The position numbers and the translations under genes are program-made. From positions 2,641-66,640 of the forward strand of contig JBGSHK010000008.1 in assembly GCA_041752275.1 (NCBI GenBank): a stretch of DNA of 64,000 nt, in the 5' to 3' direction. Within the stretch, counting starts at the first letter, position 1, and the number at the start of each line of letters is the position of its first letter. This document shows positions 3,931-61,173 of the stretch, piece after piece. The stretch is from Minisyncoccia bacterium. Its GTDB lineage: Bacteria > Patescibacteriota > Minisyncoccia > Phycocordibacterales > CAIZLB01. The notes under the pieces were generated by a model, which worked only from the letters and a program-made list of their open reading frames with translations, made no database searches and was not told the DNA's origin.

Positions 3931-3966
3931 AAACCACAATTATCCACAATACTGTGGTTTTTTGTT
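3931..3966 (+). terminator. second rho-independent terminator; loop contains a perfect DnaA-box-like TTATCCACA
   Basis: ccacaattatccacaatactgtgg followed by tttttgtttt. Confidence 0.55.
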
Positions 3967-7627: not shown

Positions 7628-8989
7628 ATGATTAAATCACATGGACGTAAGTCAAAAATAATTGCCAAAATAGCTGACAACAACGCAGAACCAGAATACT
7701 TAAAATCTCTTATAGAGGCCGGTATTGATGTTATGTGGCTAAACACTGCTCATCAAGGTGAGGAAGAAGCTCTCGATGTTGTCAACAAAATACGTCAAGT
7801 GTCAGATCAAAAAATGTCTATTTTACTTGATACAAAAGGACCTGAAACTAGAACAAAAGGATTAGAAAATCCTTTGGAAATTAAAAAAGGTGATTATGTT
7901 GTTTTCACAGGTGATATGTCTTTAACAGGTTCAAATATTATAGGTGTAGATTATCCAAATTTTCACAATGAAATACCTGTAGGAGAGCTTATAAGTTATG
8001 ACGATAACTCAGCTTCTTTTATAGTTGAAGAAAAAGTTGATAACGGTATAAAATGTATAGTAAAAAATGATGCTATTATAAAAAATAAAAAAAGTTTAAA
8101 TGTTCCAAATGTTCACATAAACTTACCCTCACTTACTCCAAAAGATGTTAGCTTTATACATTTCTGTGCTAAAAATGATATAGATTTTATCATTCACTCT
8201 TTTGTAAGAAATGTTCAAGATTTAAACGATATAAAAGAAATACTTAAAGAATATCCAGCTTATAAAGGTAAAATTATAGCAAAAATAGAAAATAGAGCAG
8301 GTTTTGACAATAGAGATGGTATTTTAGATAACTGTGATGGACTTATGGTAGCCCGAGGAGACCTTATGGCCGAAGTTCCTCTTGAAGAGCTTCCTTATAT
8401 GCAAAAGAAAATGGTTGAATCAACTTTGAAAAAAGGAAAATACTGCATAGTTGCAACTCAAGTTCTTAAAAATATGGTTAAAAATCCATCTCCTACACGT
8501 GCTGAAGTTCTTGATATTGGTAACGCGGTCCTAGACGGGACTCATGGTATATCTATGAGTGATGAAACAGCTTTTGGTGATTATCCTCTTGAGGCTACAA
8601 ACGTAATGCATAGAGTTATGAAATATACAGAAGATATGAGAGGTGAACTTGTTCATTTTACAGCAGAGCCGGTATCAACAGATCCTTTATTTACTTGGGC
8701 AAAAGAAGTTGTTGAAAAGGCAAATTCTGAAAAAATTACAGCCATAGTAACAAAAATTTCTCTTGAGGCTAACAAAGCGTTGTCTGCATATCATCCAATG
8801 TCAACTATCTATGCAGGAGTGTCTGATATTATGGATTTTAGAAATATGTCTTTAGGGTATGCTTTAACACCTATAATGATAGAAAATGATACCGTTTTAG
8901 ATCTTAAAAACTCTATATCTTTTGAATCACAAGACAAGATCATGTTATGTGAAGAAGTTGATGGAAAACTTGTGTATAGCATTGTTTAG
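7628..8989 (+). CDS. pyk: pyruvate kinase
   Basis: RKSKIIAKI..., LDTKGPETR, MVARGDLMAEVP conserved pyruvate kinase blocks. Confidence 0.85.
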   Translation: MIKSHGRKSKIIAKIADNNAEPEYLKSLIEAGIDVMWLNTAHQGEEEALDVVNKIRQVSDQKMSILLDTKGPETRTKGLENPLEIKKGDYVVFTGDMSLTGSNIIGVDYPNFHNEIPVGELISYDDNSASFIVEEKVDNGIKCIVKNDAIIKNKKSLNVPNVHINLPSLTPKDVSFIHFCAKNDIDFIIHSFVRNVQDLNDIKEILKEYPAYKGKIIAKIENRAGFDNRDGILDNCDGLMVARGDLMAEVPLEELPYMQKKMVESTLKKGKYCIVATQVLKNMVKNPSPTRAEVLDIGNAVLDGTHGISMSDETAFGDYPLEATNVMHRVMKYTEDMRGELVHFTAEPVSTDPLFTWAKEVVEKANSEKITAIVTKISLEANKALSAYHPMSTIYAGVSDIMDFRNMSLGYALTPIMIENDTVLDLKNSISFESQDKIMLCEEVDGKLVYSIV

Positions 8990-8990
8990 T

Positions 8991-9072
8991 TTATTCATTT
9001 CGATCATAGTCCTCAAAAAGAGCTATTTTGGATAGCTCTTTTCTGCGGATGATCTTATTCATAAATAAACAA
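8991..9072 (+). repeat. copy A of a ~70-nt conserved intergenic module (TCATTTCGATCATAGTCCTCA - hairpin - TCTGCGGATGATCTTATTCATAAATAAA)
   Basis: Shares its 5' and 3' flank motifs with copies at 19969-20040 and 33681-33752. The central hairpin (11-bp stem) differs in sequence but not in structure. Confidence 0.7.
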
Positions 9073-9107
9073 TGAGTAACTCTTGACCATTATGATATAA
9101 TAGATAA

Positions 9108-9923
9108 GTGCCAAACATAAAAACATCCACAAAAAAAAATATACCAATAAAATCTCCATATGTAGAAATATATAATGGTGATTTGGTATTTATAGAAAAT
9201 GAAACAACTTACGGCAATAAATCAGCTAGTTTTATTGCTGGCAAAGTTTACCCTTTAAAAGTAAGAGATCTTCCTGATCATGATAAACCTAGGGAAAAAC
9301 TATTAAACCTAGGTGTAAAATCACTTGGATTAACAGAGTTACTTTCTATTGTACTCATGACAGGTACTAAAAAAGAAGATGTTTTATCCATGTCTTCTCG
9401 TGTCATAAAAGAATATGGAAAAAGTATTTTTTCAAATCCTGGACTTGATTTAAATAAAATATCAAAAGATTTAGATATACCTATAACTAAAGTATGTCAG
9501 ATTATTGCATGTGGGGAACTTGGTAAAAGACTTTTTGATAAAAATATAAATGGGGTAAAAACCATAAGAACAGTTGATGATGTTTATGAACACACAAAAG
9601 ACATGCATGGTTTATCAAAAGAACATTTAAGAGGGCTTTATCTGGACACTCACAATAAGATAATACATGATGAAGTTTTGTCTATTGGTACCATAAACAG
9701 TAGCATTATACATGCTAGAGAAGTTTTTAAACCGGCCATAGAGTATGGTGCAGCAGCATTTATACTTGTACACAACCATCCATCAGGTATCTCAACACCA
9801 TCAGAGTCAGATAAACTTATTACAGAGCAGATTATAAAAGCAGGAAAGGTTTTAGGCATAGCCTTGCTTGATCATGTTGTTGTGACAAGAGATTCTTTTG
9901 CCTCTGTGCCAGTTGAGTATTAG
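9108..9923 (+). CDS. radC: RadC-family JAMM/MPN+ protein
   Basis: C-terminal HNHPSG...SESD JAMM motif and N-terminal helix-hairpin-helix-like PREKLL..GxxxLxxxELLSIVL. GTG start at 9108 per the ORF track; the true start is uncertain. Confidence 0.8.
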   Translation: MPNIKTSTKKNIPIKSPYVEIYNGDLVFIENETTYGNKSASFIAGKVYPLKVRDLPDHDKPREKLLNLGVKSLGLTELLSIVLMTGTKKEDVLSMSSRVIKEYGKSIFSNPGLDLNKISKDLDIPITKVCQIIACGELGKRLFDKNINGVKTIRTVDDVYEHTKDMHGLSKEHLRGLYLDTHNKIIHDEVLSIGTINSSIIHAREVFKPAIEYGAAAFILVHNHPSGISTPSESDKLITEQIIKAGKVLGIALLDHVVVTRDSFASVPVEY

Positions 9924-19328: not shown

Positions 19329-19964
19329 ATGACTTATAATGTATTACCCATGTCTTATGTATTCTTTGATTTAGATAAAACTCTTATTACTAAAAATAGC
19401 TATGAAATAGTACTCAACGTTTTAAGACGAAGGAGAATTATTTCTGTATCTAGATTTTTTTATTATAAATTCATTTTACTTTTTATCAAAAATATAGATA
19501 AGAAAATGAATCATTTGGCTAGAGTTTTTGATGGTGTAAAAACTGATAGACTTGATAAAATAATAAAAGCTTTTATCTTTACAGAGTTTGATGCTATTAA
19601 AAATATAAAAGCTGTAGAAGAGCTTGAAAAACATAATACTCATAATAAAAAAGTTGTACTTGTAACCACTTCTTTTGAACCTATAGCAAAACATGCAGCT
19701 AAGTTTTTTCATATACATGATTATGTAGCAACAAAACTTGAGATTAAGAATGGAAAGTATACAGGAAAAATATTAGGTAAAATTAATTATAAAGATGAAA
19801 AGGTAAACAGACTTAATAAATATAACTTTGAAGGGTCTTTTGCATATAGTGATCACAACTCAGATATACCACTTTTAAAAAAGGCAACATATAGATATGC
19901 TGTAAATCCAAACAAAAGATTGAAGAGATATGCTAAAAATCATGGTTGGTTTATACTTCATTAA
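19329..19964 (+). CDS. HAD-superfamily hydrolase (subfamily IB-like)
   Basis: N-terminal FFDLDKTL motif I and a downstream K...(D/S)D pattern. Confidence 0.65.
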   Translation: MTYNVLPMSYVFFDLDKTLITKNSYEIVLNVLRRRRIISVSRFFYYKFILLFIKNIDKKMNHLARVFDGVKTDRLDKIIKAFIFTEFDAIKNIKAVEELEKHNTHNKKVVLVTTSFEPIAKHAAKFFHIHDYVATKLEIKNGKYTGKILGKINYKDEKVNRLNKYNFEGSFAYSDHNSDIPLLKKATYRYAVNPNKRLKRYAKNHGWFILH

Positions 19965-19968
19965 TTTA

Positions 19969-20040
19969 CTCATTTCAATCATGGTCCTCAGACTATTTTT
20001 CTTTGAAAATAGTCTTGCCGATGATCTCATTCGTAAATTA
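19969..20040 (+). repeat. copy B of the conserved intergenic module
   Basis: ctcatttcaatcatggtcctca - hairpin (agactatttttctttgaaaatagtct) - ttgccgatgatctcattcgtaaat. Confidence 0.7.
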
Positions 20041-20096
20041 ATCAAGAGATATTTAAGTATTGCCATTTTACCAAAAAAAGCATATAGTATATACCT

Positions 20097-20672
20097 ATGG
20101 CAATGCTAGAATACAACGAAATCGTTACAAGAAAAACAATTATACATGATGATGAACCGTATGAGGTACTGGACTATCATGTTTTCCGTAAACAAATGCG
20201 TAAACCAGTAAACGCTGTTAAGATAAGAAACTTACTCTCAGGACGTACTATTGAGGTTTCTTTTCAAGCAACTGATAAAGTAGAAGAAGCTGAAATAGAG
20301 ATGAAAAAAGTTAAGTATCTTTTTAACAACAAAGGGGAGTGGTGGTTTTGTGATGAAAAAAATGCATCAAACAGATTTATACTAAAAGATGAACTACTAG
20401 GTGATGCTAAAAAATACATCCTTGCAAATGATATTTTAGATATAAAATATTTTGGAGAGATTCCTATTGGAGTTAAACTTCCCATTAAAGTTAGTTTGGA
20501 AGTTACCGAAGCTCCACCTGCAGTAAGGGGTGATACGGCTAAAGGAGGAAATAAGTTGGTCACTCTATCTACCGGAACAACTATACTTGCACCTATGTTT
20601 ATAGAGCCCGGAGATATACTTACTATAAACACTGAGACAGGAGAGTATGTAGAAAGATCGTCTAAGAAATAA
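20097..20672 (+). CDS. efp: elongation factor P
   Basis: 191 aa; KPGKG-region analogue and OB-fold blocks; N-terminus aligns with EF-P. Confidence 0.85.
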   Translation: MAMLEYNEIVTRKTIIHDDEPYEVLDYHVFRKQMRKPVNAVKIRNLLSGRTIEVSFQATDKVEEAEIEMKKVKYLFNNKGEWWFCDEKNASNRFILKDELLGDAKKYILANDILDIKYFGEIPIGVKLPIKVSLEVTEAPPAVRGDTAKGGNKLVTLSTGTTILAPMFIEPGDILTINTETGEYVERSSKK

Positions 20673-21749: not shown

Positions 21750-21885
21750 GAGTATTTTTATTCCACGCGACAGGGCGCCAGCTAAGAGGTGAGAGTCTTT
21801 TGAACTCTAGTGGTCTAACGGACCTTTGTCCCTCCATCTGCTTGTTACATTTTATATAATATCAAATTTTGTTCTGGTGTCAAAT

Positions 21886-30078: not shown

Positions 30079-32673
30079 ATGAGATTTACCGATAAAATAC
30101 TTATATTACTGTTTATTATATTATTCATTACCCCTAATAACATTTATGCTACGGTTTTCACCCCAAACCTATGTACGCCCAACAAATTATATGATCATGT
30201 TGCAAATCAAATAGATCAAAGAATAGTAGGTTTGTCAGGTTCAGATGATGATAAAAGACTTTTTGATATAAGAGGCAGTTTGACAAGTCCTTGGGTATAT
30301 AATGCTGATGCTTGGATTAATAAAGATGGTTTAGGAAATATTGATTTAACAGGTGCATCTCCTTGGAACTCTAGAGGTGGATATACCAGGGCAGGAACTC
30401 TTATTACACCTCAACATGCTATTTTGGCAGAACATTATTTATTAGAAGTAGGTGATACTATGCTTTTTGTCGCTTCTGACAATACTATCGTCACAAGAAC
30501 TGTTGTTGCTAAGGCACAAATAGCGTCCACTGATATACAGTTAGTAAAACTAAACTCTCCTGTACCTAACACTATAACTCATTATCCTATAATAGACAGT
30601 GATACTTTTGAAAAATATATAAATGACGGTATAGATATGAATAGTTTTACTTTACCTTTAATAACTTTAGATCAACAAGATAATTTACTTATTAAAAATA
30701 TAGCAAAAAGATTTTTATTTGGTCAAACTAGTATACAGCACAATATAGATCAAATAAATTCAGATAGATTCATGTTTGAAGAGTTATTAATAGGTGGTGA
30801 TTCTGGTAATCCTGCATTTGTGATTACAGGTAATAAACCTGTATTATTGTTTACTCACTTTAAGGCTTTTAATGGTCCATCTTTACCTTATTATAAAAAT
30901 CAAATAGAAAGTGCTATAGACTTAATGGGTGGAGAATATGATATATCAGATATGGATATAAATTGTTTTGATAGTCCTATTGTTATGAATGAAAATCCTT
31001 ATAGAGATTATTCGACCTCTATGATTTTAGGTGATAGTTTTGGTAGTAGTACTGTAAAGTATAATATAGACAATTCTCCCATAACATTTTCCATATATTC
31101 AGGAAATGATAGTGGTTATTTTGCTATAAATACAGCAACTGGAGAATTAACTTTGGCAACAACCTCTATACCTCAAACTGTAACCGATATGGGTTTAACA
31201 ATAAATGCTGTTAAAAATACAACAGGATATGTTTCAAGATTTTCTTATAAAATAAAACAAAACATAGCACCATATCTTATAAATGTTCCTGATAGTTTGA
31301 CTATATCAGAATTATTATCAAATAACTCACTTGTTACCACTTTTCAGGGTTATGATTTAAATAACGATGCACTCGATTATTCAATAGTTTCAGGAAATAC
31401 TAATAATGCATTTAGCATATCAACTACTACAGGTCAATTGAGAGTAAATAATAATCAACACATAGATTATGATTTAAATACTGTTTTTAACTTAACTATA
31501 CGTGTAAAAGAAAGAAATACAGTACAAAAATTATCCACAGATAAAAATATTATTATAAATATTGAAGATAAAAATTATGACTTTACTGAAAGCGAATATG
31601 TATTTTCTTTAGATGAAACTATAGCAACATCTACTTTTATAGGACAGGTTACAGCAAATATTTTAGATATAAACAGTATATCAACTACATATTATGAAAT
31701 ATCAGAAGGTAATGATAATAATTATTTTTCAATAGACTCAAGTGGAAATATTTATACAAGTGACAATTCTACTTTAGAAAACATAGAAGGAGGGCAAATA
31801 ATTAACCTGGTTGCGGGTGTTAAACCTGTAGGTGAAAATGATGTGTATAAAACAGTTCCAGTAAGATTGTTAATAACAAATACAATAAGACCTACTTTAT
31901 CAATAGATTTAAATCAGCAAGTAATTACTTTAAAAGAAGGGGAGACTTTTTCATTGAAACTTAGACTTTCTTCTGCTTATTCAAAAAATATATCAGGCTC
32001 ATTACATATAGATAATATAGCTTCTAATGCTATTTCTACCACCGATTATGTTGTAGATAATTATAATTTTGTTTTTAGTCCAGGGGATATTGAAAAAACA
32101 ATTAATATTCAAATAATTAATGATAATATTAGTGACAATTTAGAGTCTATTTTCATAAATGGATTTAATAATAAAAAAAGAATAACTGAAAATGTTAATA
32201 ATTTTTTAAATATTTTAATACTTGATTTAGTATTAAATACTTCGATTAGTAATAGTAATTCCGGTGGCGGAGGTGGTGGAGGTTCATTTTCAAGTCCAAT
32301 CAACACAGTATCTGTTCTTTCAAACACAAGTACAAGTACGAATGAATTTGTAATGGCTTCTTCTACAAATAAAACTATATCTGCAAACACTATAACAAAT
32401 AATACTCTTGATAAAACAATTAATGGTATAATTTTCTCAACAAATCTTAAACAAGGGTTTATAAATCAAGATGTAAAAAACCTACAAATATTTCTAAACA
32501 GTACAGGGTCTATAGTTGCAAAAAACGGTCCCGGATCAAAAGGAAATGAGACAAACTTCTTCGGTCCTGCAACACGTGCAGCTTTGATAAGATTTCAAAA
32601 AAGTAAAAATATAAAACCAGCTTCAGGATTCTTTGGACCTATTACAAGAAATGTGATCAATGATTTGAAATAG
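30079..32673 (+). CDS. large secreted/surface protein with a C-terminal peptidoglycan-binding-like domain
   Basis: N-terminal signal/TM segment, ~800 aa of Ser/Thr/Asn-rich repeats (cadherin/Ig-like flavour), a poly-Gly linker (SGGGGGGGS), and a C-terminal PG_binding_1-like motif (FFGPATRAALIRFQ...GFFGPITR). Confidence 0.6.
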   Translation: MRFTDKILILLFIILFITPNNIYATVFTPNLCTPNKLYDHVANQIDQRIVGLSGSDDDKRLFDIRGSLTSPWVYNADAWINKDGLGNIDLTGASPWNSRGGYTRAGTLITPQHAILAEHYLLEVGDTMLFVASDNTIVTRTVVAKAQIASTDIQLVKLNSPVPNTITHYPIIDSDTFEKYINDGIDMNSFTLPLITLDQQDNLLIKNIAKRFLFGQTSIQHNIDQINSDRFMFEELLIGGDSGNPAFVITGNKPVLLFTHFKAFNGPSLPYYKNQIESAIDLMGGEYDISDMDINCFDSPIVMNENPYRDYSTSMILGDSFGSSTVKYNIDNSPITFSIYSGNDSGYFAINTATGELTLATTSIPQTVTDMGLTINAVKNTTGYVSRFSYKIKQNIAPYLINVPDSLTISELLSNNSLVTTFQGYDLNNDALDYSIVSGNTNNAFSISTTTGQLRVNNNQHIDYDLNTVFNLTIRVKERNTVQKLSTDKNIIINIEDKNYDFTESEYVFSLDETIATSTFIGQVTANILDINSISTTYYEISEGNDNNYFSIDSSGNIYTSDNSTLENIEGGQIINLVAGVKPVGENDVYKTVPVRLLITNTIRPTLSIDLNQQVITLKEGETFSLKLRLSSAYSKNISGSLHIDNIASNAISTTDYVVDNYNFVFSPGDIEKTINIQIINDNISDNLESIFINGFNNKKRITENVNNFLNILILDLVLNTSISNSNSGGGGGGGSFSSPINTVSVLSNTSTSTNEFVMASSTNKTISANTITNNTLDKTINGIIFSTNLKQGFINQDVKNLQIFLNSTGSIVAKNGPGSKGNETNFFGPATRAALIRFQKSKNIKPASGFFGPITRNVINDLK

Positions 32674-33669: not shown

Positions 33670-33680
33670 AAAATTTATTT

Positions 33681-33752
33681 ACTTTGCTCAACCACGGTCC
33701 TCGAAAAATTATAACAATTTTTCTGCGGATGATTTCGCTACATAAATAAATT
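33681..33752 (+). repeat. copy C of the conserved intergenic module
   Basis: caaccacggtcctcg - hairpin (gaaaaattataacaatttttc) - tgcggatgatttcgctacataaataaa. Confidence 0.65.
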
Positions 33753-33805
33753 TAAGTATTTACAAAAAATAAAAAAACCGACCTATAAAAATAAGTCAGC
33801 ATTTT

Positions 33806-34176
33806 TATCATCCTCCTAACTATAAGCCGAATTCTGTATCAAATTTTATCGAAACAAAATTTGACGACAATCATTTATCTGGGATGAAGATTGCTCTTCA
33901 CCTCGAGCGGCACTTACGTGTAAACACGCACACGGCCTTGCACACATGTAAGAGTTTAGCCGTTTCACCCTTATTGTTTTTACAACACTAACAATAAGAT
34001 TGACCTCGTGTAGGCCTGTATCAACTTTCGTTGACACACGTCACTGCTCGCATCTCTCTGTTGCCAGAGAAGGGAGTTACCCTTTACAATCCTGCATGGA
34101 TAAATCCACGCGTGTGTTCGGACTTTCCTCTGTGTTTTCTCTAAAGAAATACAGCGATTGTCTGTTTGGAGGATGT
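33806..34176 (-). ncRNA. rnpB: RNase P RNA (bacterial type A)
   Basis: The minus strand carries AGAGGAAAGTCCGAAC (P4 5' strand), GGCAACAGAGAG, AAGGGTGAAACGG, GCAAGGCC and ACAGAATTCGGCTTATAG (P4 3' strand) in the canonical order. The P1 stem CATCCTCC/GGAGGATG sets the ends; ~371 nt. Confidence 0.85.
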
Positions 34177-35789: not shown

Positions 35790-36164
35790 ATGAAAACAAA
35801 TATAAACCAAAATGACAAAAGAATAATCACAAATGAACAACTATATGATCTTATGGTTTCATCTATTGCAGATTTAAGAAAATCAACTCTTGACGGTTTT
35901 GATAGGGTTTTTGAAGTGATTGATGAAAATAAACTTGAACTCAAGCAAGATATTAGTGATTTAAGAACAGAACTCAAGCAAGATATCAGTGACTTAAGAA
36001 CAGAGCTTAAACAAGATATTAGTGATTTAAGAACGGAACTCAAGGGTGATATTTTTGACTTAAGAAAAGAAATGAATCAAAGATTTACTTTTGTTGATGG
36101 CCGTTTTTCCAGTTTAGAAAATAATGTTGTATATAAACACCAATTATCTTCAAAGTTTGCATAA
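35790..36164 (+). CDS. small coiled-coil protein with 11-residue tandem repeats
   Basis: ELKQDISDLRT repeated about four times, encoded by 33-bp direct repeats. Confidence 0.5.
   Translation: MKTNINQNDKRIITNEQLYDLMVSSIADLRKSTLDGFDRVFEVIDENKLELKQDISDLRTELKQDISDLRTELKQDISDLRTELKGDIFDLRKEMNQRFTFVDGRFSSLENNVVYKHQLSSKFA
35935..36066 (+). repeat. 4 x 33-bp near-perfect tandem direct repeats (gaactcaagcaagatattagtgatttaagaaca)
   Basis: Four consecutive units with 1-4 substitutions each. Confidence 0.9.
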
Positions 36165-51395: not shown

Positions 51396-51428
51396 AAAAC
51401 CACCCTATGGAATAAGGTGATTTTGTTG
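51396..51428. terminator. bidirectional terminator T1 (CACCCTAYRGAATAAGGTG), copy 1 of 3
   Basis: aaaaccaccctatggaataaggtgatttt; near-identical hairpins at ~53693-53725 and ~54376-54405. Confidence 0.6.
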
Positions 51429-51435
51429 GATCTGT

Positions 51436-51466
51436 GCATGGGAGGATGTTCGAACCTTGTTGGTGC
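51436..51466. repeat. E element (catgggaggatgttcgaaccttgttg), copy 1
   Basis: Repeats at ~52676-52716 (near-identical) and ~54406-54440 (diverged: ggttgagggatgttagaacctatttg). Confidence 0.55.
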
Positions 51467-51631
51467 AAAAATAAACCGCCATACCTTTCGGACGGACGGT
51501 TTTTGCTTTAGCTGATGTTGCCAGCGCGGGATAGTTAGTCCACAGTATCAATGTCAACAGTACCTTCTTTGTCGTAAATACTGTCGGGAACTGTACATAT
51601 GTTCGTGACAGGTTTCTGCTCAACGATACTG

Positions 51632-52147
51632 TTAGGGACGGAGGGTAGTTTGTGCCACCACCCCCCATCCTTCTTGCGGAACTGAAGAGTACCCCCAAAA
51701 GGTGTCGTTCTGCTCGGTTGGAACTGCAGGAATGTACCAGCCGATCTGATTCGTCCTGCCACCTAGTGATGAGCGACACCCTTCGGAGTCGATGTCACTG
51801 ATATCTTTATTGCCAATCCTTGCAGCACATGGTGCACAAAGCAAGGATTGGTGGTCGAGAAACGTTTGGTACTCTCGCCAGAGTTTTACCCCACGTGCAC
51901 CACACAGACAGCATCTGTAGCTTGCAGGTGCGGTGATCATGGAATAATTTACCGGTTGTGAAGGATTGACTATAGGGTCATATGGAGATCCTTCTCCAAA
52001 CATTTCCCGAGCAAGTCGAAGGGCCTTGGCCGGACCCCTTTCTCCATTAAATGACATCGAAGGTTTTTTACCTCTCGAACGTTTCCATATTGCATGCCCT
52101 ATAACGAAAGGAGCACTACCGGGTAAAAAACGAAGGAACTTTTTCAT
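51632..52147 (-). CDS. hypothetical Cys-rich protein (island gene 1)
   Basis: 171-aa ORF with GC ~50%, preceded by the duplicated TTGACA...TTATCTTAA promoter/leader module. Its 3' part overlaps alternative-frame ORF 51535..51762, which ends next to the terminator, so the C-terminus is uncertain. Confidence 0.45.
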   Translation of the reverse strand: MKKFLRFLPGSAPFVIGHAIWKRSRGKKPSMSFNGERGPAKALRLAREMFGEGSPYDPIVNPSQPVNYSMITAPASYRCCLCGARGVKLWREYQTFLDHQSLLCAPCAARIGNKDISDIDSEGCRSSLGGRTNQIGWYIPAVPTEQNDTFWGYSSVPQEGWGVVAQTTLRP

Positions 52148-52159
52148 GATTTATTGTTT

Positions 52160-52222
52160 GTTGTTGGTTGTGAAAAGTAAAAGTGCTACCGTTAAGATAA
52201 CACTTTTTATATATTTGTCAAC
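52160..52222 (-). promoter_or_regulatory. promoter/leader module copy 1 (minus strand: TTGACAaatatataaaaagtgTTATCTTAAcGGTAGCACTTTTAC...)
   Basis: ~55 nt conserved with the copy at 52610-52670, including the -35 TTGACA and a -10-like TTATCTTAA/TTATCGTAA. Confidence 0.5.
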
Positions 52223-52223
52223 A

Positions 52224-52298
52224 ATACTCCTCGAGTTACCTTTTTACCGAACTAGGGGAGTGGTTTAGATTGTTGAAGAGGAATGGGTTTAGATTTAT
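52224..52298. repeat. R element (~70 nt) copy 1
   Basis: ctcctcgagttacctttttaccgaactaggggagtggtttagattgttgaagaggaatgggtttag; second copy at ~53727-53800 with ~8 substitutions. Confidence 0.6.
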
Positions 52299-52300
52299 AT

Positions 52301-52338
52301 AAAATGAAAATCCCGTCAGCTTTACCTGTGACGGGAGG
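52301..52338 (-). terminator. rho-independent terminator for the 80-aa gene
   Basis: Minus strand: cccgtcacaggtaaagctgacggg followed by attttcatttt. Confidence 0.6.
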
Positions 52339-52352
52339 GGTATTCAATGTTT

Positions 52353-52595
52353 CTATGATGAAATTTGTGGTTTTGATATTTCATCCCAAGATGCTTCGTA
52401 ATCAAAGGATATTGACACGTTAACCCCGTTAGAATTTAAGAATTTTCCCGTGATGTGTAGTTCAGGGTAGTCTCCTGATGCATTATCCTCAAGAATTTCA
52501 CTATCATTATTGGGGACATTTGATTTTCCTTCGGCAGTAAGAATAACGAATATCCTATGCCAGAGTTCCTTGTTTTTGTGTTCTTGAACTTTCAT
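52353..52595 (-). CDS. hypothetical small acidic protein (island gene 2)
   Basis: 80-aa ORF between terminator T3 and promoter/leader module copy 2. Confidence 0.45.
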   Translation of the reverse strand: MKVQEHKNKELWHRIFVILTAEGKSNVPNNDSEILEDNASGDYPELHITGKFLNSNGVNVSISFDYEASWDEISKPQISS

Positions 52596-52609
52596 ATTTT
52601 GTTGTTACA

Positions 52610-52670
52610 GTTGATTGCAGTCAGTAAAAAGTGCTACCTATTACGATAACACTTTTTACGTATTTGTCAA
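52610..52670 (-). promoter_or_regulatory. promoter/leader module copy 2
   Basis: Minus strand: TTGACAaatacgtaaaaagtgTTATCGTAAtaGGTAGCACTTTTTAC. Confidence 0.5.
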
Positions 52671-52721
52671 CACTTGCTCCGCGCATGGGAGGATGTTCGA
52701 ACCTTGTTGTGCAAATGAAAA

Positions 52722-52765
52722 CCACCCCTGGCACGAATGGTTCCGTGCAGGGGCGGTGGTTGGTA
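52722..52765 (-). terminator. rho-independent terminator for island gene 3
   Basis: Minus strand: ccccTGCACGGaaccattCGTGCCAgggg followed by tggtttt. Confidence 0.6.
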
Positions 52766-52788
52766 GCAAGAGTTTATCCAGTTATCAG

Positions 52789-53253
52789 CTAACCTCGAAG
52801 GTCGATCTGGTTATAGCCCTTCTTTCTCATCTCAACATAGATAGGGAGAAGCAGCATGAGTAGTCTGTGGTTTGCTTCATCTTTGCTTTCTGTCGTATCA
52901 AGGTACACTGTATTGATTGCCTCGGAGATCGTAGGCATTGGGATGCCCAACCTCTCAATCGTACCGTCAAGTATCTGATAGAACTCGGCACCTGTTTGTC
53001 CTAGGCGCAATTCTGAATTGAAATAGTGTTTCCTGTCTTCTTCGGATATTGTATCCCTGAAAACTTTATCCCATCCGCCATTTTCTCGCATTAGGGTGCG
53101 ATATGTACCCTCCGAGTTGCCCGTAGGAACAGGTACATCGCCCAAAGGGAAGTGCTGATGGAAATTGTTGATAATATTGTTGCGTGCGATGGACCACCCT
53201 TCGCTTGCGTCAATTTTTGATTCAGATTCATCGTATGGTTGTTCGTTTTGCAT
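52789..53253 (-). CDS. hypothetical protein (island gene 3)
   Basis: Start moved to the second ATG, which has a perfect AAAGGAGGT 5 nt upstream. No own promoter: the gene begins ~35 nt after the DUF1059 gene's terminator. Confidence 0.5.
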   Translation of the reverse strand: MQNEQPYDESESKIDASEGWSIARNNIINNFHQHFPLGDVPVPTGNSEGTYRTLMRENGGWDKVFRDTISEEDRKHYFNSELRLGQTGAEFYQILDGTIERLGIPMPTISEAINTVYLDTTESKDEANHRLLMLLLPIYVEMRKKGYNQIDLRG

Positions 53254-53293
53254 TTTACCTCCTTTCAAGGGCTGGTTAAGTTGATTGAAACTA

Positions 53294-53330
53294 AAAAGAA
53301 CACGACATATTTATATCACGTTCTTTTTAA
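53294..53330. terminator. bidirectional hairpin aaaaagaacacgacatatttatatcacgttcttttt
   Basis: 11-bp stem with a mismatch, flanked by A-run and T-run. Confidence 0.55.
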
Positions 53331-53392
53331 TTTGTCTAATTAGCTCCTTCTAGTACACGAGTTCAGAACTTTAAATTGGAGGAATATTCAAT

Positions 53393-53620
53393 CTAAACTT
53401 GTGAATTTTCAACTTCTTTAACCTCTTCTTCGGACACATCTTCTGGTGCCATTTCAAATCTAGCTTTATTGTCAGCCATCCATTTTTCCATATCTCCATT
53501 AGGGTCATTCATTACTTCAGGGTGTGCTTGCATGTAGTGAGGTTGAAGATTTGTCATCCATTCTTCAAAAGTATTACCTTGGGCAGTTACTTCACATAAA
53601 TCACATTTAAGAGTTTTCAT
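53393..53620 (-). CDS. DUF1059-family small protein (island gene 4)
   Basis: 75 aa; MKTLKCDLCEVTAQGNTFEEWMTNLQPHYMQAHPEVM pattern as in DUF1059. Confidence 0.5.
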   Translation of the reverse strand: MKTLKCDLCEVTAQGNTFEEWMTNLQPHYMQAHPEVMNDPNGDMEKWMADNKARFEMAPEDVSEEEVKEVENSQV

Positions 53621-53692
53621 AATATTTTTTTTATTTAAAATTTAATTAATAATTTATATTATAGCACAAGTTCTGAACACTGTTTGGGTAAC

Positions 53693-53800
53693 CAAAATCA
53701 CCCTACAGAATAAGGTGATTTTAATGGCTCCCGAGTTACCTTTTTACCGAACTGGGGGAGTGGTGTAGGTTGTTGAAGAGGAATGGGTTTAGGTTTGTAT
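53693..53800. repeat. T1 terminator copy 2 fused to R element copy 2
   Basis: aaaatcaccctacagaataaggtgatttt immediately followed by ggctcccgagttacctttttaccgaactgggggagtggtgtaggttgttgaagaggaatgggtttagg. Confidence 0.6.
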
Positions 53801-53873
53801 AAAAGAAAAAGAACCCAGCAACTTTAGAAAGTACATCTAGATTCATCTTTTTGGTTTATATACCGAGATTTGA

Positions 53874-54281
53874 TCAATGATCAGGATAGAACATTGGAAT
53901 TTGTCCCTCGAAGACCTCCTGGAGATAAAGGTTGAGGAGGATTCGTTGTGCACCTCTACCAAAATCATCTCCACTCGACAAGTGTCCAGGGTCTTTCAGA
54001 GATCCGATATTACGAATCCTATCAGAGATGTTTTTCCAGATTTGTTCCGTCTGTCCACCAGATTTTGTCCCCGTGATGGTGATCGAGCAAGAGCAAGATA
54101 CACCCTTGGAATCAGTTATCGATTCACTGGTATTAATGTTGACTCCGACGAGGTGTGGTTGGATCAGTGAATCAGGAGTACTGAACTCTTCAGCAATGAT
54201 TTGTTGCAATTCAGCACGAGCATCTTCGAGATGTGTGCGATTTCCGAACTCACTCGTATAAGCGATGTTTATGGTTGACAT
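53874..54281 (-). CDS. hypothetical protein (island gene 5); TGA stop
   Basis: 135-aa ORF with no recognisable family; GC ~47%. Confidence 0.45.
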   Translation of the reverse strand: MSTINIAYTSEFGNRTHLEDARAELQQIIAEEFSTPDSLIQPHLVGVNINTSESITDSKGVSCSCSITITGTKSGGQTEQIWKNISDRIRNIGSLKDPGHLSSGDDFGRGAQRILLNLYLQEVFEGQIPMFYPDH

Positions 54282-54375
54282 GGTGGTTGTTTTCTGTTGA
54301 ATGATTAACTTATGTATAATATAATATTAGTATTAAAAAGTCAAATATAATAAAGATATAATAGAAAAATAACCT

Positions 54376-54440
54376 TACAAAATAAGGCTACTTTTGATTT
54401 GCTCCGCGGGTTGAGGGATGTTAGAACCTATTTGATTAAT
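54376..54440. repeat. T1-like hairpin copy 3 plus diverged E element copy 3
   Basis: aaccttacaaaataaggctacttttgatttgctccgcgggttgagggatgttagaacc. Confidence 0.45.
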
Positions 54441-54528
54441 ACATAATGAAGGTATTTATACTTATAAATATTAATAAAGAAGATATAATAGCAAAAATAT
54501 CTAATGGGTGGTAAAATATCATCTAATA

Positions 54529-56958
54529 ATGGCAATTAAAAAATCACAACTATATAGTTCTATTTGGCAAGGGTGTGATGAGCTCCGAGGTGGAATGGAT
54601 GCCTCACAATATAAAGATTACGTACTTGTTCTTTTGTTTATACGTTATGTTTCAGATAAATACTCAGGTAAAGTAGATTCATTGGTTGAAATTCCAGCGG
54701 GTGGTAGTTTTGCAGATCTTGCCAGTTTGAAAGGAAAATCACATATTGGAGATGGTATCAATAAAGTTCTTGCAAAACTTGCTGAGGCTAATGGACTGCA
54801 AGGTGTTATTGATGCAGTTGATTTTAATGACGAAGAAAAGCTTGGTAAAGGTAAGGATATGCAAGATAGACTTTCAAACCTTATTGCTATTTTTGAAAAT
54901 CCTGATTTAGATTTTAGTAAAAACAAAGCTGAGGGCGACGATCTACTTGGCGATGCATATGAGTACCTTATGAAGCATTTTGCTGTTGAGTCTGGTAAAA
55001 GCAAAGGACAGTTTTATACTCCGGCAGAAGTTTCCCGAATTGTAGCTAAAGTTATTGAAGCAAATAAAGCTGACAGTGGTATGCATACAGTGTATGACCC
55101 TGCCTGTGGTAGTGGTTCATTGCTTTTGAAAGTCGCAGAGGAAGCAAAGAAAATTTCTATTTATGGACAAGAGCTTGATACTGCAACCGCAGGACTTGCA
55201 ACACTTAACATGTGGCTACATAACAAACCTGAAGCTGAAATAAGAAAAGGGCAAAGCACACTCTCCACACCGCTCTTTATAGAACATGGATCTCTCAAGA
55301 CGTTTGATTATGTTGTAGCTAATCCACCCTTTTCTTACAAATCATGGCGTAACGGTTTTGAACCAGAACACGATCAGTACGATCGTTTTGACGGTTTTGG
55401 TATTCCTCCAAAAAAGAAAGGAGACTTTGCCTTTCTTTTGCATATTTTGAAATCACTTAAAAGCACAGGGACAGGTGCAGTCATCCTTCCGCACGGTGTT
55501 TTATTCCGTGGAAATGTAGAAGCTGAAATTCGTAAGAACATTATTGAAAGAGGATATATCAAAGGAATAATTGGATTACCAGCAAACCTTTTCTACGGAA
55601 CAGGAATATCTGCCTGCATTATCGTGTTAGACAAAGCAACTGCCACTACACGCAAAGGCATCTTCATGGTAGATGCCTCAAAAGGATTTATTAAAGATGG
55701 AAATAAGAATCGTCTTCGTGAGCGGGATATTCGCAAGATTGTAGATACGTGGACAGACAAGCTGGAGACTTCAAGGTTTTCCCGCTTTGTTACAAATGAA
55801 GAAATTAAGAAGAATGATTATAACCTCAACCTTCCGAGATATATTGATGCTCAAGAAATAGAGGATATTCAAGATATCGAAGCACATCTTAAGGGTGGAA
55901 TTCCTGAAGCTGATATTGAAATCCTTTCTCCCTATTGGAAAATCTGTTCAACCCTGAAACATTCACTTTTTAAAGCCAATGGCCGTAAAGGTTATAGTGA
56001 GATAAAGATTGCACCCGATGAAGTTAAGAAGACGATTCTTGGTCATGCTGAATTTGAGACATTCAGAAAAGATGTGTTGTTACATTTTGCAAAATGGCAA
56101 ACTCCAATCACCTCATATTTGAAGGGTATTTCTGTTACAGATCATCCAAAAGCGATTATTGAAAAAATATCCGATAGTCTACTTGAAAAATTTGCTGATC
56201 TTACACTGATTGATAAATATGATATTTATCAACACCTTATGTCATATTGGGAAGAAATAATGCAGGATGATACACATATCGTAACAGTTGAAGGTTGGAA
56301 ATCGGGAAATGAAATAGTTCGATTGCAAAAAGAGAATAAAGGAAAGAAAAAAGATATTGATGGCCTTGTCGGTCTTGAAGGTAGACTTATTCCTACATCT
56401 CTTATCATTAAGACTTATTTTGAAAAGGAACAAAAAGTAATTTATGGATTGAATTCTGCGCTTGAACAGGTGGGTGTAGACATGGATACTCTCAAAGATG
56501 AACATGGTGGAGACGAAGGTCTGCTTTCTGAGGTGATTGATAATGACAAGATCAGCAAGGTAAGTGTTTTGAAAAGAATCAAAGAAATCAAGCATAGCAA
56601 TGATGATACTGATGAACTCGCGGTCCTAGAAAAATATACTGTCCTATTTGAAAAGGAATTTGATACTAAAAAAACAATCAAAGACGCCCTTATAGATATT
56701 GAAAAGAAGGTCCTTAAAAAGTACCCGACACTTTCTATCGATGAGGTAAAAACACTTGTCGTTGAAGATAAGTGGATGAATGAACTCTCTACTCGCATAC
56801 TCGGCGAAGTTGATAGATTGTCCCAGACTCTTGCTGGCCGTGTAAAAGAGCTTGCGGAGAGATATGTAAAACCAATGCCTAAGATTGTGGAAGAGGTTGA
56901 AGATTTAAAAAATAAAGTCGAAAGACATCTGAAAAAGATGGGATTTGATATTAAATAA
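54529..56958 (+). CDS. hsdM: type I restriction-modification system DNA methyltransferase subunit HsdM (long form with ~300-aa C-terminal extension)
   Basis: N6-adenine methyltransferase motifs (DPACGSGS motif I; VVANPPFS motif IV), HsdM N-terminal domain, coiled-coil-rich C-terminal extension. ATG at 54529 preferred over GTG at 54508. Confidence 0.85.
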   Translation: MAIKKSQLYSSIWQGCDELRGGMDASQYKDYVLVLLFIRYVSDKYSGKVDSLVEIPAGGSFADLASLKGKSHIGDGINKVLAKLAEANGLQGVIDAVDFNDEEKLGKGKDMQDRLSNLIAIFENPDLDFSKNKAEGDDLLGDAYEYLMKHFAVESGKSKGQFYTPAEVSRIVAKVIEANKADSGMHTVYDPACGSGSLLLKVAEEAKKISIYGQELDTATAGLATLNMWLHNKPEAEIRKGQSTLSTPLFIEHGSLKTFDYVVANPPFSYKSWRNGFEPEHDQYDRFDGFGIPPKKKGDFAFLLHILKSLKSTGTGAVILPHGVLFRGNVEAEIRKNIIERGYIKGIIGLPANLFYGTGISACIIVLDKATATTRKGIFMVDASKGFIKDGNKNRLRERDIRKIVDTWTDKLETSRFSRFVTNEEIKKNDYNLNLPRYIDAQEIEDIQDIEAHLKGGIPEADIEILSPYWKICSTLKHSLFKANGRKGYSEIKIAPDEVKKTILGHAEFETFRKDVLLHFAKWQTPITSYLKGISVTDHPKAIIEKISDSLLEKFADLTLIDKYDIYQHLMSYWEEIMQDDTHIVTVEGWKSGNEIVRLQKENKGKKKDIDGLVGLEGRLIPTSLIIKTYFEKEQKVIYGLNSALEQVGVDMDTLKDEHGGDEGLLSEVIDNDKISKVSVLKRIKEIKHSNDDTDELAVLEKYTVLFEKEFDTKKTIKDALIDIEKKVLKKYPTLSIDEVKTLVVEDKWMNELSTRILGEVDRLSQTLAGRVKELAERYVKPMPKIVEEVEDLKNKVERHLKKMGFDIK

Positions 56959-56963
56959 ACTTT

Positions 56964-58151
56964 ATGACAAGTGTAATCAAAACAATTCCAAAGGGATACA
57001 AACAAACTGAAATCGGGGTTGTTCCTACTGATTGGGATGTCCAACCAATAAGTTATATTGCAAAGGTTACAACAGGGTCTAAAAACACTCAGGACAAAAT
57101 CGATACTGGCCTCTACCCATTCTTTGTGCGATCCCAAGTAGTTGAGAGGATAAATAGTTATTCTTATAACGGTGAAGCTATTCTAACTGCTGGAGACGGT
57201 GTTGGTACCGGTAAGGTTTTTCATTACATAAATGGTAAGTTTGATATCCATCAGAGAGTTTACAAAATCAGTGACTTCTCTAGTGATATAAATGGATATT
57301 ATTTCTACTTGTATTTTAGTAATAATTTCTATAAAAGAATTATGCAGATGACCGCAAAATCATCTGTCGATTCAGTTCGAATGGAAATGATTGCTGACAT
57401 GCAAATCCCTTTACCTAGTAAGACTGAACAGGTATCCATTACTAAAGCGCTCTCCGATATCAGTACTCTAATCCAAAAGACAGAAAGTCTGATTGAAAAG
57501 AAGAGGGTTATTAAACAAGGTGCAATGCAGGAATTACTTACGGGAAAAAGAAGACTGTCTGGTTTTAGTGGTGATTGGGATTATAAAAGACTTGGTGATA
57601 TCACAGACATGTCGTCGGGTGGAACACCGTTATCAAGTAATCCGGTTTATTATGGTGGGTGGATACCTTGGGTTGTAATTGCTGATATGACCAGAATAAC
57701 TAAATATCTTTTTGATACAGAAAAAAAGATCACAAACAAAGGACTTGAAAATAGTTCAGCAAAATTATTTCCTGCAGGAACACTGCTTTTTGCTATGTAT
57801 GCATCAATAGGAAAGTGTTCAATTACTAAAGTTGATGTAAGTTGTAATCAAGCTATTTTAGGAATCAATACAAAAAAGATTGATATAGAATTTTTATATT
57901 ATTATTTGTCATTTAATGAGCAGAAGTTTTTGCAAATGGGTCAATCAGGAACACAAAATAATCTGAACAAAGAAATAGTTGAGAATTTCTCGATACCCTA
58001 TCCTCAAATACCGGAGCAAACCGCCATTGCTACCATCCTCTCCGATATGGATACCGAAATAGAAAAGCTTGAATCGGAAATGATAAAATGGAAAGATATA
58101 AAGCAAGGGATGGTGCAAACATTATTAACAGGTAAAATAAGATTAATCTAA
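56964..58151 (+). CDS. hsdS: type I RM specificity subunit HsdS
   Basis: Two target-recognition domains separated by and ending in conserved helical spacers (LLTGKRRL ... LLTGKIRL). Confidence 0.85.
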   Translation: MTSVIKTIPKGYKQTEIGVVPTDWDVQPISYIAKVTTGSKNTQDKIDTGLYPFFVRSQVVERINSYSYNGEAILTAGDGVGTGKVFHYINGKFDIHQRVYKISDFSSDINGYYFYLYFSNNFYKRIMQMTAKSSVDSVRMEMIADMQIPLPSKTEQVSITKALSDISTLIQKTESLIEKKRVIKQGAMQELLTGKRRLSGFSGDWDYKRLGDITDMSSGGTPLSSNPVYYGGWIPWVVIADMTRITKYLFDTEKKITNKGLENSSAKLFPAGTLLFAMYASIGKCSITKVDVSCNQAILGINTKKIDIEFLYYYLSFNEQKFLQMGQSGTQNNLNKEIVENFSIPYPQIPEQTAIATILSDMDTEIEKLESEMIKWKDIKQGMVQTLLTGKIRLI

Positions 58152-58155
58152 TAAT

Positions 58156-61100: not shown

Positions 61101-61173
61101 AGTGTTACCGGATATCATCGATGAAGATATGAAAACTTTAATTGAAATTATTAAAAATCAACATGAGTATTAA
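58156..61173 (+). CDS. hsdR: type I RM restriction endonuclease/helicase subunit HsdR
   Basis: N-terminal PD-(D/E)xK region (DIVLYVNGIAVGVIELK), SF2 helicase motifs (TQGSGKS; DECHRSHTG), 1005 aa. Confidence 0.88.
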   Translation: MNTTQTTIVGQIERKTQNRVVSLFRDSLGYDYFGNWEDREENSNIEEEYLRPFLMRSGHGDILIDKAIETLKKSTNRPQLSLYELNKETYGLLRYGIKVREGLGESYQTIWPIDWKNPEKNHFAIAEEVTIKGNKTKRPDIVLYVNGIAVGVIELKRSTVSVSEGIRQNIGNQKEDFIKTFFGTIQLIMAGNDTEGLRYGTTETPEVHYLSWKEVGVGSESRLDKTILQICDKNRILEIIHNFIVFDSGIKKTCRHNQYFGIKSAQDYLNRHEGGIVWHTQGSGKSLTMVWLAKWIRENISDARVLLLTDRTELDQQIKQVFNGVDEEIWRAPNAKDLLSELNKKDKWLLCSLVHKFGRRNANGEMEVDVDSLRSNLPTDFSAKGNIYVFVDECHRSHTGKLHEAMKELLPNATFIGFTGTPLLKIDKSNSVGSFGPYIHTYKYNEAVADKVVLDLRYEARRVDQDISSQDKIDEWFEERTQGLTDVAKAELKKRWGTMQSLLSSKSRLEKVVFDILDDFYKKDRLASGRGNAMLVASSISEACMYYEIFQLQGFTKCAVVTSYEPGALSSDTREYAIYQRMLGGKDTETFEKEVKKKFIDTPGQMQLLIVVDKLLTGFDAPPATYLYIDRNMQDHGLFQAICRVNRLDGDDKEYGYIVDYRDLFKKLEKAVSDYTSDALDGFDKEDVVGLLKDRMDEGKKDLDEALEVVRALCEPVAPPKDSIKYINYFCGDVENPYSLKENEVKRVKLYKSVSHLIRSYADIANDMKDAGYNKDQAKAIEKDVKHYEQVRTEVKLASGDYIDLKKYESAMRVLIDRYISATESQKLSAFNDMTLVDLIVKKGEDALNNLPDTIKQSHEAVAETIENNVRKLIIDEMPTNPKYYLRMSELLNELVKKRKQADVEYREYLKQIIELSKKVKDPMDESVGVEINTSAKRAIYDNLGQDVQKAVMVHEAVMGSRQADWRGNKLKERAIKIEIRKVLPDIIDEDMKTLIEIIKNQHEY

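Follow-up and report, generated by a model that had tools for sequence, protein, structure and literature searches.

A family of interspersed structured repeats from a genus-level clade of Parcubacteria

The three similar intergenic modules that a first-pass annotation had pointed out in the window (the whole 64,000-nucleotide stretch of DNA analysed here) proved to be genuine members of one family of folded repeats of about 90 bases. The family consisted of lineage-restricted, interspersed structured repeats of about 85-95 nt from a genus-level clade of Parcubacteria, and it comprised two subfamilies. It was previously undescribed: a full-text search of the literature found no description of interspersed repeats or small structured nucleic acids of Patescibacteria. 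We consider that there is an even chance that the three copies in the window (A, B and C) represent a non-autonomous mobile structured repeat that is recognised as a folded single strand.

The genomes of Patescibacteria are tiny and tightly packed. The repeat family united conserved unpaired bases within covarying helices, a fold of greater stability on one strand, and turnover at dispensable intergenic bases. This combination of features provides a handle either on a new mobilising enzyme that reads folded single strands or on a new class of RNA.

Three copies in the window and their fold

The motif pair GTCCTC-N10-40-GATGAT had exactly three exact matches in the 64 kb (9009-9053, 19984-20025 and 33697-33733) versus 0.12 expected, and none of 100 shuffled sequences reached three. 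All three matches were on the plus strand, in agreement with the three copies in plus orientation that had been claimed. The common 5' and 3' flank motifs around three unrelated central hairpins were also as described, and the hairpin stems had 11-12 bp in copy A, 10 bp in copy B and 7-8 bp in copy C. The copies were 11-14 kb apart. The genome had 31% G+C and was rich in AU hairpins, so that chance similarity among AT-rich palindromes, or an artefact of local duplication, had to be considered. Nevertheless, this reading was already refuted and retains practically no probability: besides the result with the shuffled sequences, full-length matches to the covariance model at E<1e-10 were found in four other assemblies from different samples, and a descriptor that fixed only GCA…GA and the helix geometry retrieved members only, without false positives, on both strands of about 1 Mb (about 2 Mb scanned).

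The modules were real but longer than had been noted, since the conserved unit ran outward into an AU-rich outer stem. According to the covariance-model boundaries, the complete elements were located at 8984-9075 (copy A, 92.2 bits), 19959-20047 (copy B, 87 bits) and 33672-33756 (copy C, 75.3 bits), all with the minus strand as the folding strand. On this strand each window copy folded into a rod where the flanks paired with each other around the hairpin. From the outside inward, the AU-rich outer stem led into a GA loop that was rich in purines and included a 2-bp mini-helix; after a stem of 5 bp and a bulged stem of 3 bp came the GCA/GA loop and then the apical hairpin.

The plan of the whole family could be read on the strand carrying CGCA…GAGGAC. 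Its outermost part was P0, an AU-rich stem of 5-14 bp that was followed by a G.A/A.G step. Next came the 2-bp mini-helix (AU/UA, GC/CG or AC/GU), a GA/GAA loop and the 5-bp stem P1, which was GAUCA/UGAUC in the kind found in the window and GUUUC/GAAAC in the X kind found in relatives. Inward of P1 there was a 3-bp stem, U-Y-C/G-G-A, and a bulge that started with C; innermost was the 3x2 loop GCA/GA, capped by the apical hairpin P2. Thus, the core common to both subfamilies was YCGCA–hairpin–GAGGACU (that is, U-Y-C-GCA–hairpin–GA-GGA-C-U) together with the GA-rich internal loop. The internal loops were purine-rich on the minus strand (GAAUAAG / GAAAUGA) and pyrimidine-rich on the plus strand.

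Copy A belonged to the GAUCA subfamily and was complete. On the minus strand, its 5' core AUCAUCCGCA (9044-9053) supplied the 5' strand of P1, the UCC of the 3-bp c-stem and the GCA loop; the apical hairpin P2 was formed by AAAAGAGCUAU and AUAGCUCUUUU (9015-9042); and the 3' core GAGGACUAUGAU (9003-9014) supplied the GA loop, the c-stem GGA, the bulge CUA and the 3' strand of P1. Copy B was of the same subfamily with a slightly defective core, where UCG produced a G.G mismatch in the c-stem. Its apical hairpin, AGACUAUUUU / AAAAUAGUCU (19990-20015, minus strand), was unrelated in sequence to that of copy A. Copy C was a variant of the GAUCA subfamily with AAUCA/UGGUU as P1, including a wobble pair, with GC/CG instead of AU/UA as the mini-helix, and with the apical hairpin GAAAAAUU / AAUUUUUC (33703-33723, minus strand). 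The statement that copy C retained only GGTCCTC was therefore too simple, as the changes in its flanks compensated each other and preserved the same helices.

Copies A and B had been placed directly after the stops of pyk and the HAD gene, and both indeed began at those stop codons: the outer stem of copy A overlapped the stop codon (8987-8989) of the pyruvate kinase gene (7628-8989, plus strand), and the outer stem of copy B overlapped that of the HAD gene (19962-19964). Pfam identified pyruvate kinase and HAD hydrolase upstream of the two copies and RadC and EF-P downstream. Copy C had been placed between the start of a minus-strand gene and rnpB. This was borne out, except that rnpB, the class A RNase P RNA (33807-34173, 106.2 bits), was itself encoded on the minus strand and had its own terminator, so that copy C was downstream of it. 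Namely, on the folding strand this canonical intrinsic terminator (33777-33800, minus strand) directly preceded copy C, on whose other side were the promoter and start codon of a minus-strand ORF of 168 aa. The RNase P RNA was unusually divergent for class A, as its 106 bits compared with a gathering score of 100. It was also the sole gathering-level match to Rfam 15 in the window, and no Rfam family fitted the copies.

The promoter of efp (TTGCCA-17-TATAGT, 20060-20088, plus strand) was located 13 nt past copy B and was conserved in relatives without the element. In the radC (9081-9110) and efp (20060-20099) promoters, the TATAAT-like -10 box was only 6-9 nt before the start codon, and this was conserved in relatives, suggesting leaderless mRNAs.

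Family members and orthologous spacers in related genomes

Copies in relatives were searched for with blastn-short and nhmmer. Orthologous loci were obtained by protein look-up and one protein-anchored metagenome scan, and about 1 Mb of the relatives' DNA was examined. The repeat was present in the window and in the L118-type, L124-type and L212 lineages, whereas the approximately 21 kb examined for each of L209 and L213 contained no intact copy. Related Parcubacteria contigs contained seven further intact members, ten in all, and four of these belonged to the GUUUC sister subfamily. An intact copy D was found in L131, adjoining the stop codon of trxB, and the repeat X was found beside a decayed copy in L118, with further copies in L118 and L124. 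The covariance model R1 was built from the four GAUCA-type copies A-D only (three from the window and one from a relative). It recovered the GUUUC subfamily at full length (X2 47.7, X3 46.1 and X1 33.7 bits, E 5.5e-6 to 2.6e-3) and the L212 copies E1, E2 and E3 (69.7, 64.5 and 48.1 bits). The model R2 was built from the ten members and run over 1.07 Mb, where only the ten distinct members at E<1e-10 and one nested variant in L132 (E 0.011) were found, with zero antisense matches. The first-pass annotation had called for such a covariance model and had held that finding no further copies would count against the family; in the approximately 1 Mb examined, further copies existed in the relatives.

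In the window, a covariance-model scan with the filters off returned A, B, C, a 17-bit match at 819-906 and nothing else. The latter match (minus strand, 17.1 bits, E about 1) was a decayed GUUUC-subfamily copy upstream of ftsW that kept its outer stem and the hairpin CACUUUGUC-CUA-GAUAAAGUG and had lost its 5' core. The same spacer held the intact X2 in L118. The pattern ATCATCSGCA-N10-40-GAGGACYRTGRT gave only G+C-rich chance or coding matches in genome contigs, with no real copy among the matches listed. The AT-rich 25-mer GAGGACYRTGRTYGARMWRARTAAA had no matches in the metagenome scan, and the scans of viral sequences had none.

Two further arrangements were observed in relatives. At L132 865-947, a second C-CUA-G hairpin (CUUUGCC-CUA-GGCAAAG) replaced the 5' strand of the 5-bp stem of a GUUUC variant (29.9 bits, E 0.011), which looks like a nested or recombined copy. 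In the pyk-radC spacer of L118 (11363-11533), two members were located side by side in opposite orientations: a decayed GAUCA-type copy, of which the hairpin alone was intact, and the intact GUUUC-type X1, which ended 2-3 nt from the radC -35 box. Permissive Rfam scans over this spacer and over copy A produced sub-threshold chance matches of at most 24 bits.

The hairpin tip was C-CUA-G in most members outside the window and had been lost from A, B and C. Thus, the sequence-variable hairpin that had been described was partly peculiar to the three window copies. The claimed full turnover of the hairpin sequence was true among A, B and C, but the relatives kept the C-CUA-G tip and the stem of copy A was unchanged in three other lineages, namely in L118 and L127, at pyk, and in L131, as part of copy D.

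Homologues of the pyruvate kinase assigned the window to Patescibacteria/Parcubacteria. The nearest relatives had pyruvate kinases 77-87% identical to that of the window, and comparison of their orthologous spacers, another check that had been proposed, showed spacers that were empty, that carried one-arm remnants, or that held a different subtype in the opposite orientation. The pyk-radC spacer (site A) was only 18 nt long in L121 and L123. It contained only the right outer arm (TAAATAAACAATGA) in L124-126 and only TTATTCATTTCGAT of the left flank in L128; L118 and L127 had the copy A hairpin (AGAGCTAT…ATAGCTCT) with unrecognisable or decayed flanks. The HAD-efp spacer (site B) was empty in L129 and L130, and in L133 it contained ATTTATTTACTTTAGCTCAA, an arm of the copy-C type rather than the copy-B type. 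At rnpB (site C), L209 had a single outer arm, L211 an A/D-type arm and L212 the intact A/D-type copy E1. The spacer 3' of trxB held the GAUCA-type D (minus strand) in L131, the GUUUC-type E3 (plus strand) in L212 and neither in the window. Since the ORFs upstream of D and E3 were not homologous, the trxB site was defined solely by the common 3' end of trxB. Thus, this small set of spacers at gene ends had seen copies arrive, disappear and be exchanged for others, and the turnover was rapid. Both presence/absence at orthologous sites and copies at lineage-specific sites were observed, as is expected of a mobile repeat. Given this variation of the spacers, the REP/MITE-like mobile module was the best fit of the three candidates in the first-pass annotation, which had also named a small RNA and a terminator-associated element.

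The intact copies were nevertheless strongly constrained. At four-fold sites, the window and the L118-type lineage were 0.36-0.52 identical versus 0.38 expected at random, which is effectively saturation, and across lineages saturated at silent sites intact copies were about 96% identical. Namely, A and D were identical at 46 of 48 flank positions, 21 of 22 positions in the hairpin stems and 2 of 5 in the loop. The loop of D was the same as that of the hairpin at the pyk site of L118 itself, which argues against recent import.

Several other features of the window were recorded. The 136 nt downstream of trxB (21750-21885), the place of D and E3 in relatives, contained a different, G+C-richer sequence (CCACGCGACAGGGCGCCAGC…) with a weak sub-threshold match to the DUF3800-II RNA (21.6 bits versus a gathering score of 43.2, E 0.035), and its right end was similar to the sequence that precedes the first gene called in L209. 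The sequence ATTATCCACA, which contains the DnaA-box consensus TTATCCACA, was found at 3939-3948 and 31530-31539 of the window and at 6335-6344 of L118; the occurrences at window 3939 and L118 6335 were both upstream of mraZ and each was followed by an inverted GTGG. At 35904-36068, four to five tandem 33-nt units (65-88% identical) within an ORF encoded an 11-residue protein repeat (ELKQDISDLRT-like). The region 51396-54434, where the G+C content was higher (0.38), contained repeat families of 79, 37 and 32 nt that were 84-94% identical and recurred 1.2-2.3 kb apart. One of its repeat units contained GGATGTTCGAACC, resembling a tRNA T-arm; its ORFs had no Pfam hits, no Rfam hit was obtained there at E<0.01, and ARAGORN found no tRNA in the 64 kb. 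A complete type I restriction-modification operon, encoding HsdM (816 aa), HsdS (395 aa) and HsdR (1005 aa), occupied 54508-61173.

Covariation, strand preference and alternative readings

Every helix of the family covaried. In the model-fitted alignment of the ten members, 91.9% of the cells were paired versus 68.9% after shuffling, and 23 of the 30 pairs changed on both sides. The covariation score was 0.660 versus 0.266 for shuffled alignments, with the observed value reached by none of 500 shuffles, and slid controls had 34-53% pairing. Since this alignment was fitted to the structure, a hand segmentation verified against the raw sequences was also checked and gave the same picture. The covariation grew as homologues were added, from seven to ten members, so the selection on structure that had been claimed from three copies held up.

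The plus-strand reading of the copies, on the other hand, was not supported. The RNA fold of copy A had -30.4 kcal/mol (z -7.6) on the minus strand versus -24.7 on the plus strand, and that of copy C had -19.3 versus -11.6 kcal/mol; moreover, the 5-bp stem of copy C held only via a G.U pair on the minus strand. The minimum free energy, which does not depend on the alignment, was lower on the folding strand in nine of the ten members, and G.U cells outnumbered A.C cells on this strand by 15 to 5. The gap between the strands was 2-11 kcal/mol with RNA parameters versus 1-3 kcal/mol with DNA parameters. Eight of the ten members, including all six of the GAUCA type, had their folding strand on the same chromosomal strand, which by GC skew carried the sequence of the leading-strand template. 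Since the copies were few and partly related by descent, the sign tests on both proportions (nine of ten for free energy and eight of ten for chromosomal strand) were suggestive only.

Such a pattern is also what a structured RNA with a host function would produce. In this reading the minus strand would encode either a small RNA or a part of transcripts that serves in protein binding or processing; the purine-rich and GCA/GA loops would be its functional surface and the copies would be paralogues. We regard this as the main rival to the mobile repeat and as possible, though on balance improbable. In its favour were the covariation of all helices, the wobble pairs and the lower free energy of one strand, for which RNA parameters gave a far wider gap, the purine-rich loops with tandem G.A on the folding strand, and the strong conservation of unpaired bases, with A and D about 96% identical across saturated divergence. 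Additionally, six of the ten members had the same orientation as at least one gene next to them: D, E2, E3 and X1 directly followed a gene of their own strand, and C and E1 were downstream of rnpB, past its terminator. However, no sigma-70-like promoter preceded A, B or X2 on the folding strand, copy C was behind the rnpB terminator, and A, B, X2 and X3 were antisense to both of their flanking co-directional genes. In A and D, the apical hairpin and the following U5 would end a sense transcript halfway. Moreover, at each site the copy had been lost or truncated in most lineages, so no copy was indispensable, and there was no match to Rfam. The small-RNA candidate of the first-pass annotation, too, was weakened by the missing promoters and by the four antisense members.

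The core with its tandem-G.A loop and the C-CUA-G tip could conceivably be a new class of functional RNA confined to Parcubacteria, such as a module for an RNA-binding or RNA-guided protein, a self-cleaving ribozyme, or the RNA intermediate of a retro-mobile element. We offer this as a speculative and rather doubtful suggestion; if true, the repeats would be dispersed RNA genes and not passive DNA. As for classes already known, a kink-turn (UCC-GCA-GA…GA-GGA) could be drawn for A and C and was not conserved across the family, because D was without the G, B had AG, and in the GUUUC subfamily GCA was directly followed by Watson-Crick pairs. The hammerhead, twister, pistol and hatchet ribozymes, as well as SRP RNA, Y RNA, the sarcin-ricin loop, the RAT antiterminator, boxA, box C/D and CRISPR repeats, were rejected by eye against their consensus sequences, with no supporting Rfam hit. 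A small ORF was rejected too: when all frames were read, stops in B and C interrupted the 23-codon minus-strand frame of copy A, and the plus-strand read-through frames of the copies differed by non-synonymous changes at first and second positions.

The position of A and B at stop codons suggested another explanation, namely that the copies were intrinsic terminators or 3'-end stabilisers of the plus-strand genes pyk and HAD, with the flanks only lengthening the stem. The A/D hairpin, an 11-bp stem with A- and T-runs, was consistent with this, and L118 and L127 had kept it at pyk without its flanks. However, the terminator scan that detected the rnpB terminator found nothing at A, B or C, and it was negative at every copy. 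A T-run was restricted to the A/D type of hairpin and was missing from B, C and the GUUUC subfamily, and a separate GC-rich stem followed by a T-run could be seen by eye downstream of efp. In addition, the plus-strand 3' flank would fall past the termination point, the plus-strand fold was the weaker one in nine of the ten members, and C, X1 and E3 were oriented otherwise relative to their neighbours. Thus, a role as terminators was unlikely, and the earlier designation as terminator-associated was not supported. The sharing of the copy A hairpin without flanks by L118 and L127 also raised the idea that the flanks had captured native terminators. We rejected it because D, E1 and E2 showed the hairpin travelling with its flanks, and the 3' flank in L118 was plausibly that of a decayed copy. 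For annotation, the family is a warning against taking every hairpin that directly follows a stop codon in these genomes for a terminator.

Proposed mobility and comparison with known systems

In the mobile structured repeat that we favour, the whole unit would be copied or transferred to the short dispensable stretches that separate a stop codon from the following promoter or stop. A trans-acting protein that reads the folded single strand would dock on the unpaired bases that are conserved, namely those of the GCA/GA loop and the tandem G.A loop, the bulged C and, in most members, the tip C-CUA-G. The logic of recognition would be like that of integrases on attC or of HUH enzymes on REP or IS200 hairpins. 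The apical hairpin would be needed only for the fold, which would explain why A, B and C have entirely different ones. Copies would then be deleted by palindrome-driven slippage, with solo arms left behind.

A number of observations stood against mobility. The AU-rich outer arms differed between copies and partly coincided with the sequence at the empty sites, and a consistent target-site duplication was not definable across copies. Neither an excision product nor a filled/empty polymorphism inside a single population was seen. The near-identity of A and D over saturated divergence and the compensations in copy C would also fit purifying selection by the host on an RNA. The strand given by GC skew, the leading-strand template, was not the one favoured by transposition of the IS200/IS605 type, and the free-energy gap between strands was larger under RNA than under DNA parameters. 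Among the part of the window's ORFs that was screened, no transposase, HUH enzyme, recombinase or reverse transcriptase was found. An IS200/IS605-type single-strand mechanism was itself rejected, as it depends on a pair of end hairpins and would prefer the opposite strand. The readings as a mobile repeat and as a functional RNA are not mutually exclusive. In practice, the covariance model can be used on complete genomes, and the repeat can be used as a marker for strain-level tracking of uncultured hosts.

Several known systems resembled the repeats in part. TIGR systems likewise combine variable palindromes with short conserved motifs and occur in parasitic bacteria, including Parcubacteria (Tas systems; PMC12045711). 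Their units form tandem arrays adjoining a Tas (Nop-domain) gene and have box C/D motifs inside the loop as well as spacers (PMC12045711). In contrast, the copies described here were dispersed singly, their conserved blocks were outside the variable hairpin, and neither loop had a conserved K-turn geometry; no tandem family was found at the copy sites. The pneumococcal BOX elements are similarly modular and intergenic, with conserved end modules around a variable middle and a stable predicted fold. However, BOX varies by the copy number of boxB and not by replacement of a hairpin, its sequence is unrelated and its host belongs to another phylum.

Integron attC sites were comparable in that they keep a structure while most of their sequence can change, conserve a small number of unpaired or extrahelical bases and vary in their terminal structure. 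In view of this layout, with paired conserved boxes and an unpaired spacer, the copies might themselves be attC-like or other tyrosine-recombinase sites, of the integron or CALIN type, that act as folded single-stranded DNA. We consider this very improbable. The R''/R' boxes (RYYYAAC…GTTRRRY) were absent from all copies, there were no R/L box consensus and no cassette arrays, no integrase was seen among the neighbouring genes, and the flanks were far more conserved in sequence than those of attC. Moreover, core genes (uvrA, uvrB, ftsZ, ftsA and leuS) lay in the 11-14 kb between copies, and since these genes keep their order in relatives without the element, they were not cassettes.

The proposed non-autonomous mobile structured repeat also had parallels among MITEs and REP elements. 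Similar to the MITEs Correia/NEMIS, RUP, ERIC and bcr1, the family had a size within their class (70-160 bp), formed an imperfect palindrome overall and included several subfamilies; the copies were inserted next to gene ends and were present or absent at orthologous sites. The defining features of MITEs are terminal inverted repeats that are conserved and a target-site duplication, whereas here the termini were variable, the conserved blocks were internal, and the helices covaried with a strand preference. No conserved terminal inverted repeats were found, since the outer arms paired within each copy and differed between copies. Short direct repeats could be drawn at the junctions (ACATAAA at C, ATTAAT at B and TAR at A), in low-complexity sequence and with inconsistent ends of the element.

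REP/REPIN elements, which are mobilised by RAYT transposases (HUH Y1), are likewise short, multi-copy, intergenic, vertically persistent and hairpin-folding. Their copies, too, are conserved in sequence, are presumably read as single strands by an enzyme in trans, have an orientation bias and decay to remnants. In the REP test, the copies had no GTAG-type head with a short palindrome and showed no inverted pairing, and no RAYT gene was seen among the part of the window's ORFs that was screened. Thus, in comparison to REP/REPIN elements, the family did not have the GTAG/GTGG head or the inverted pair of short palindromes, and instead it was the internal loops and the flanking helices that were conserved, with the tip free to vary.
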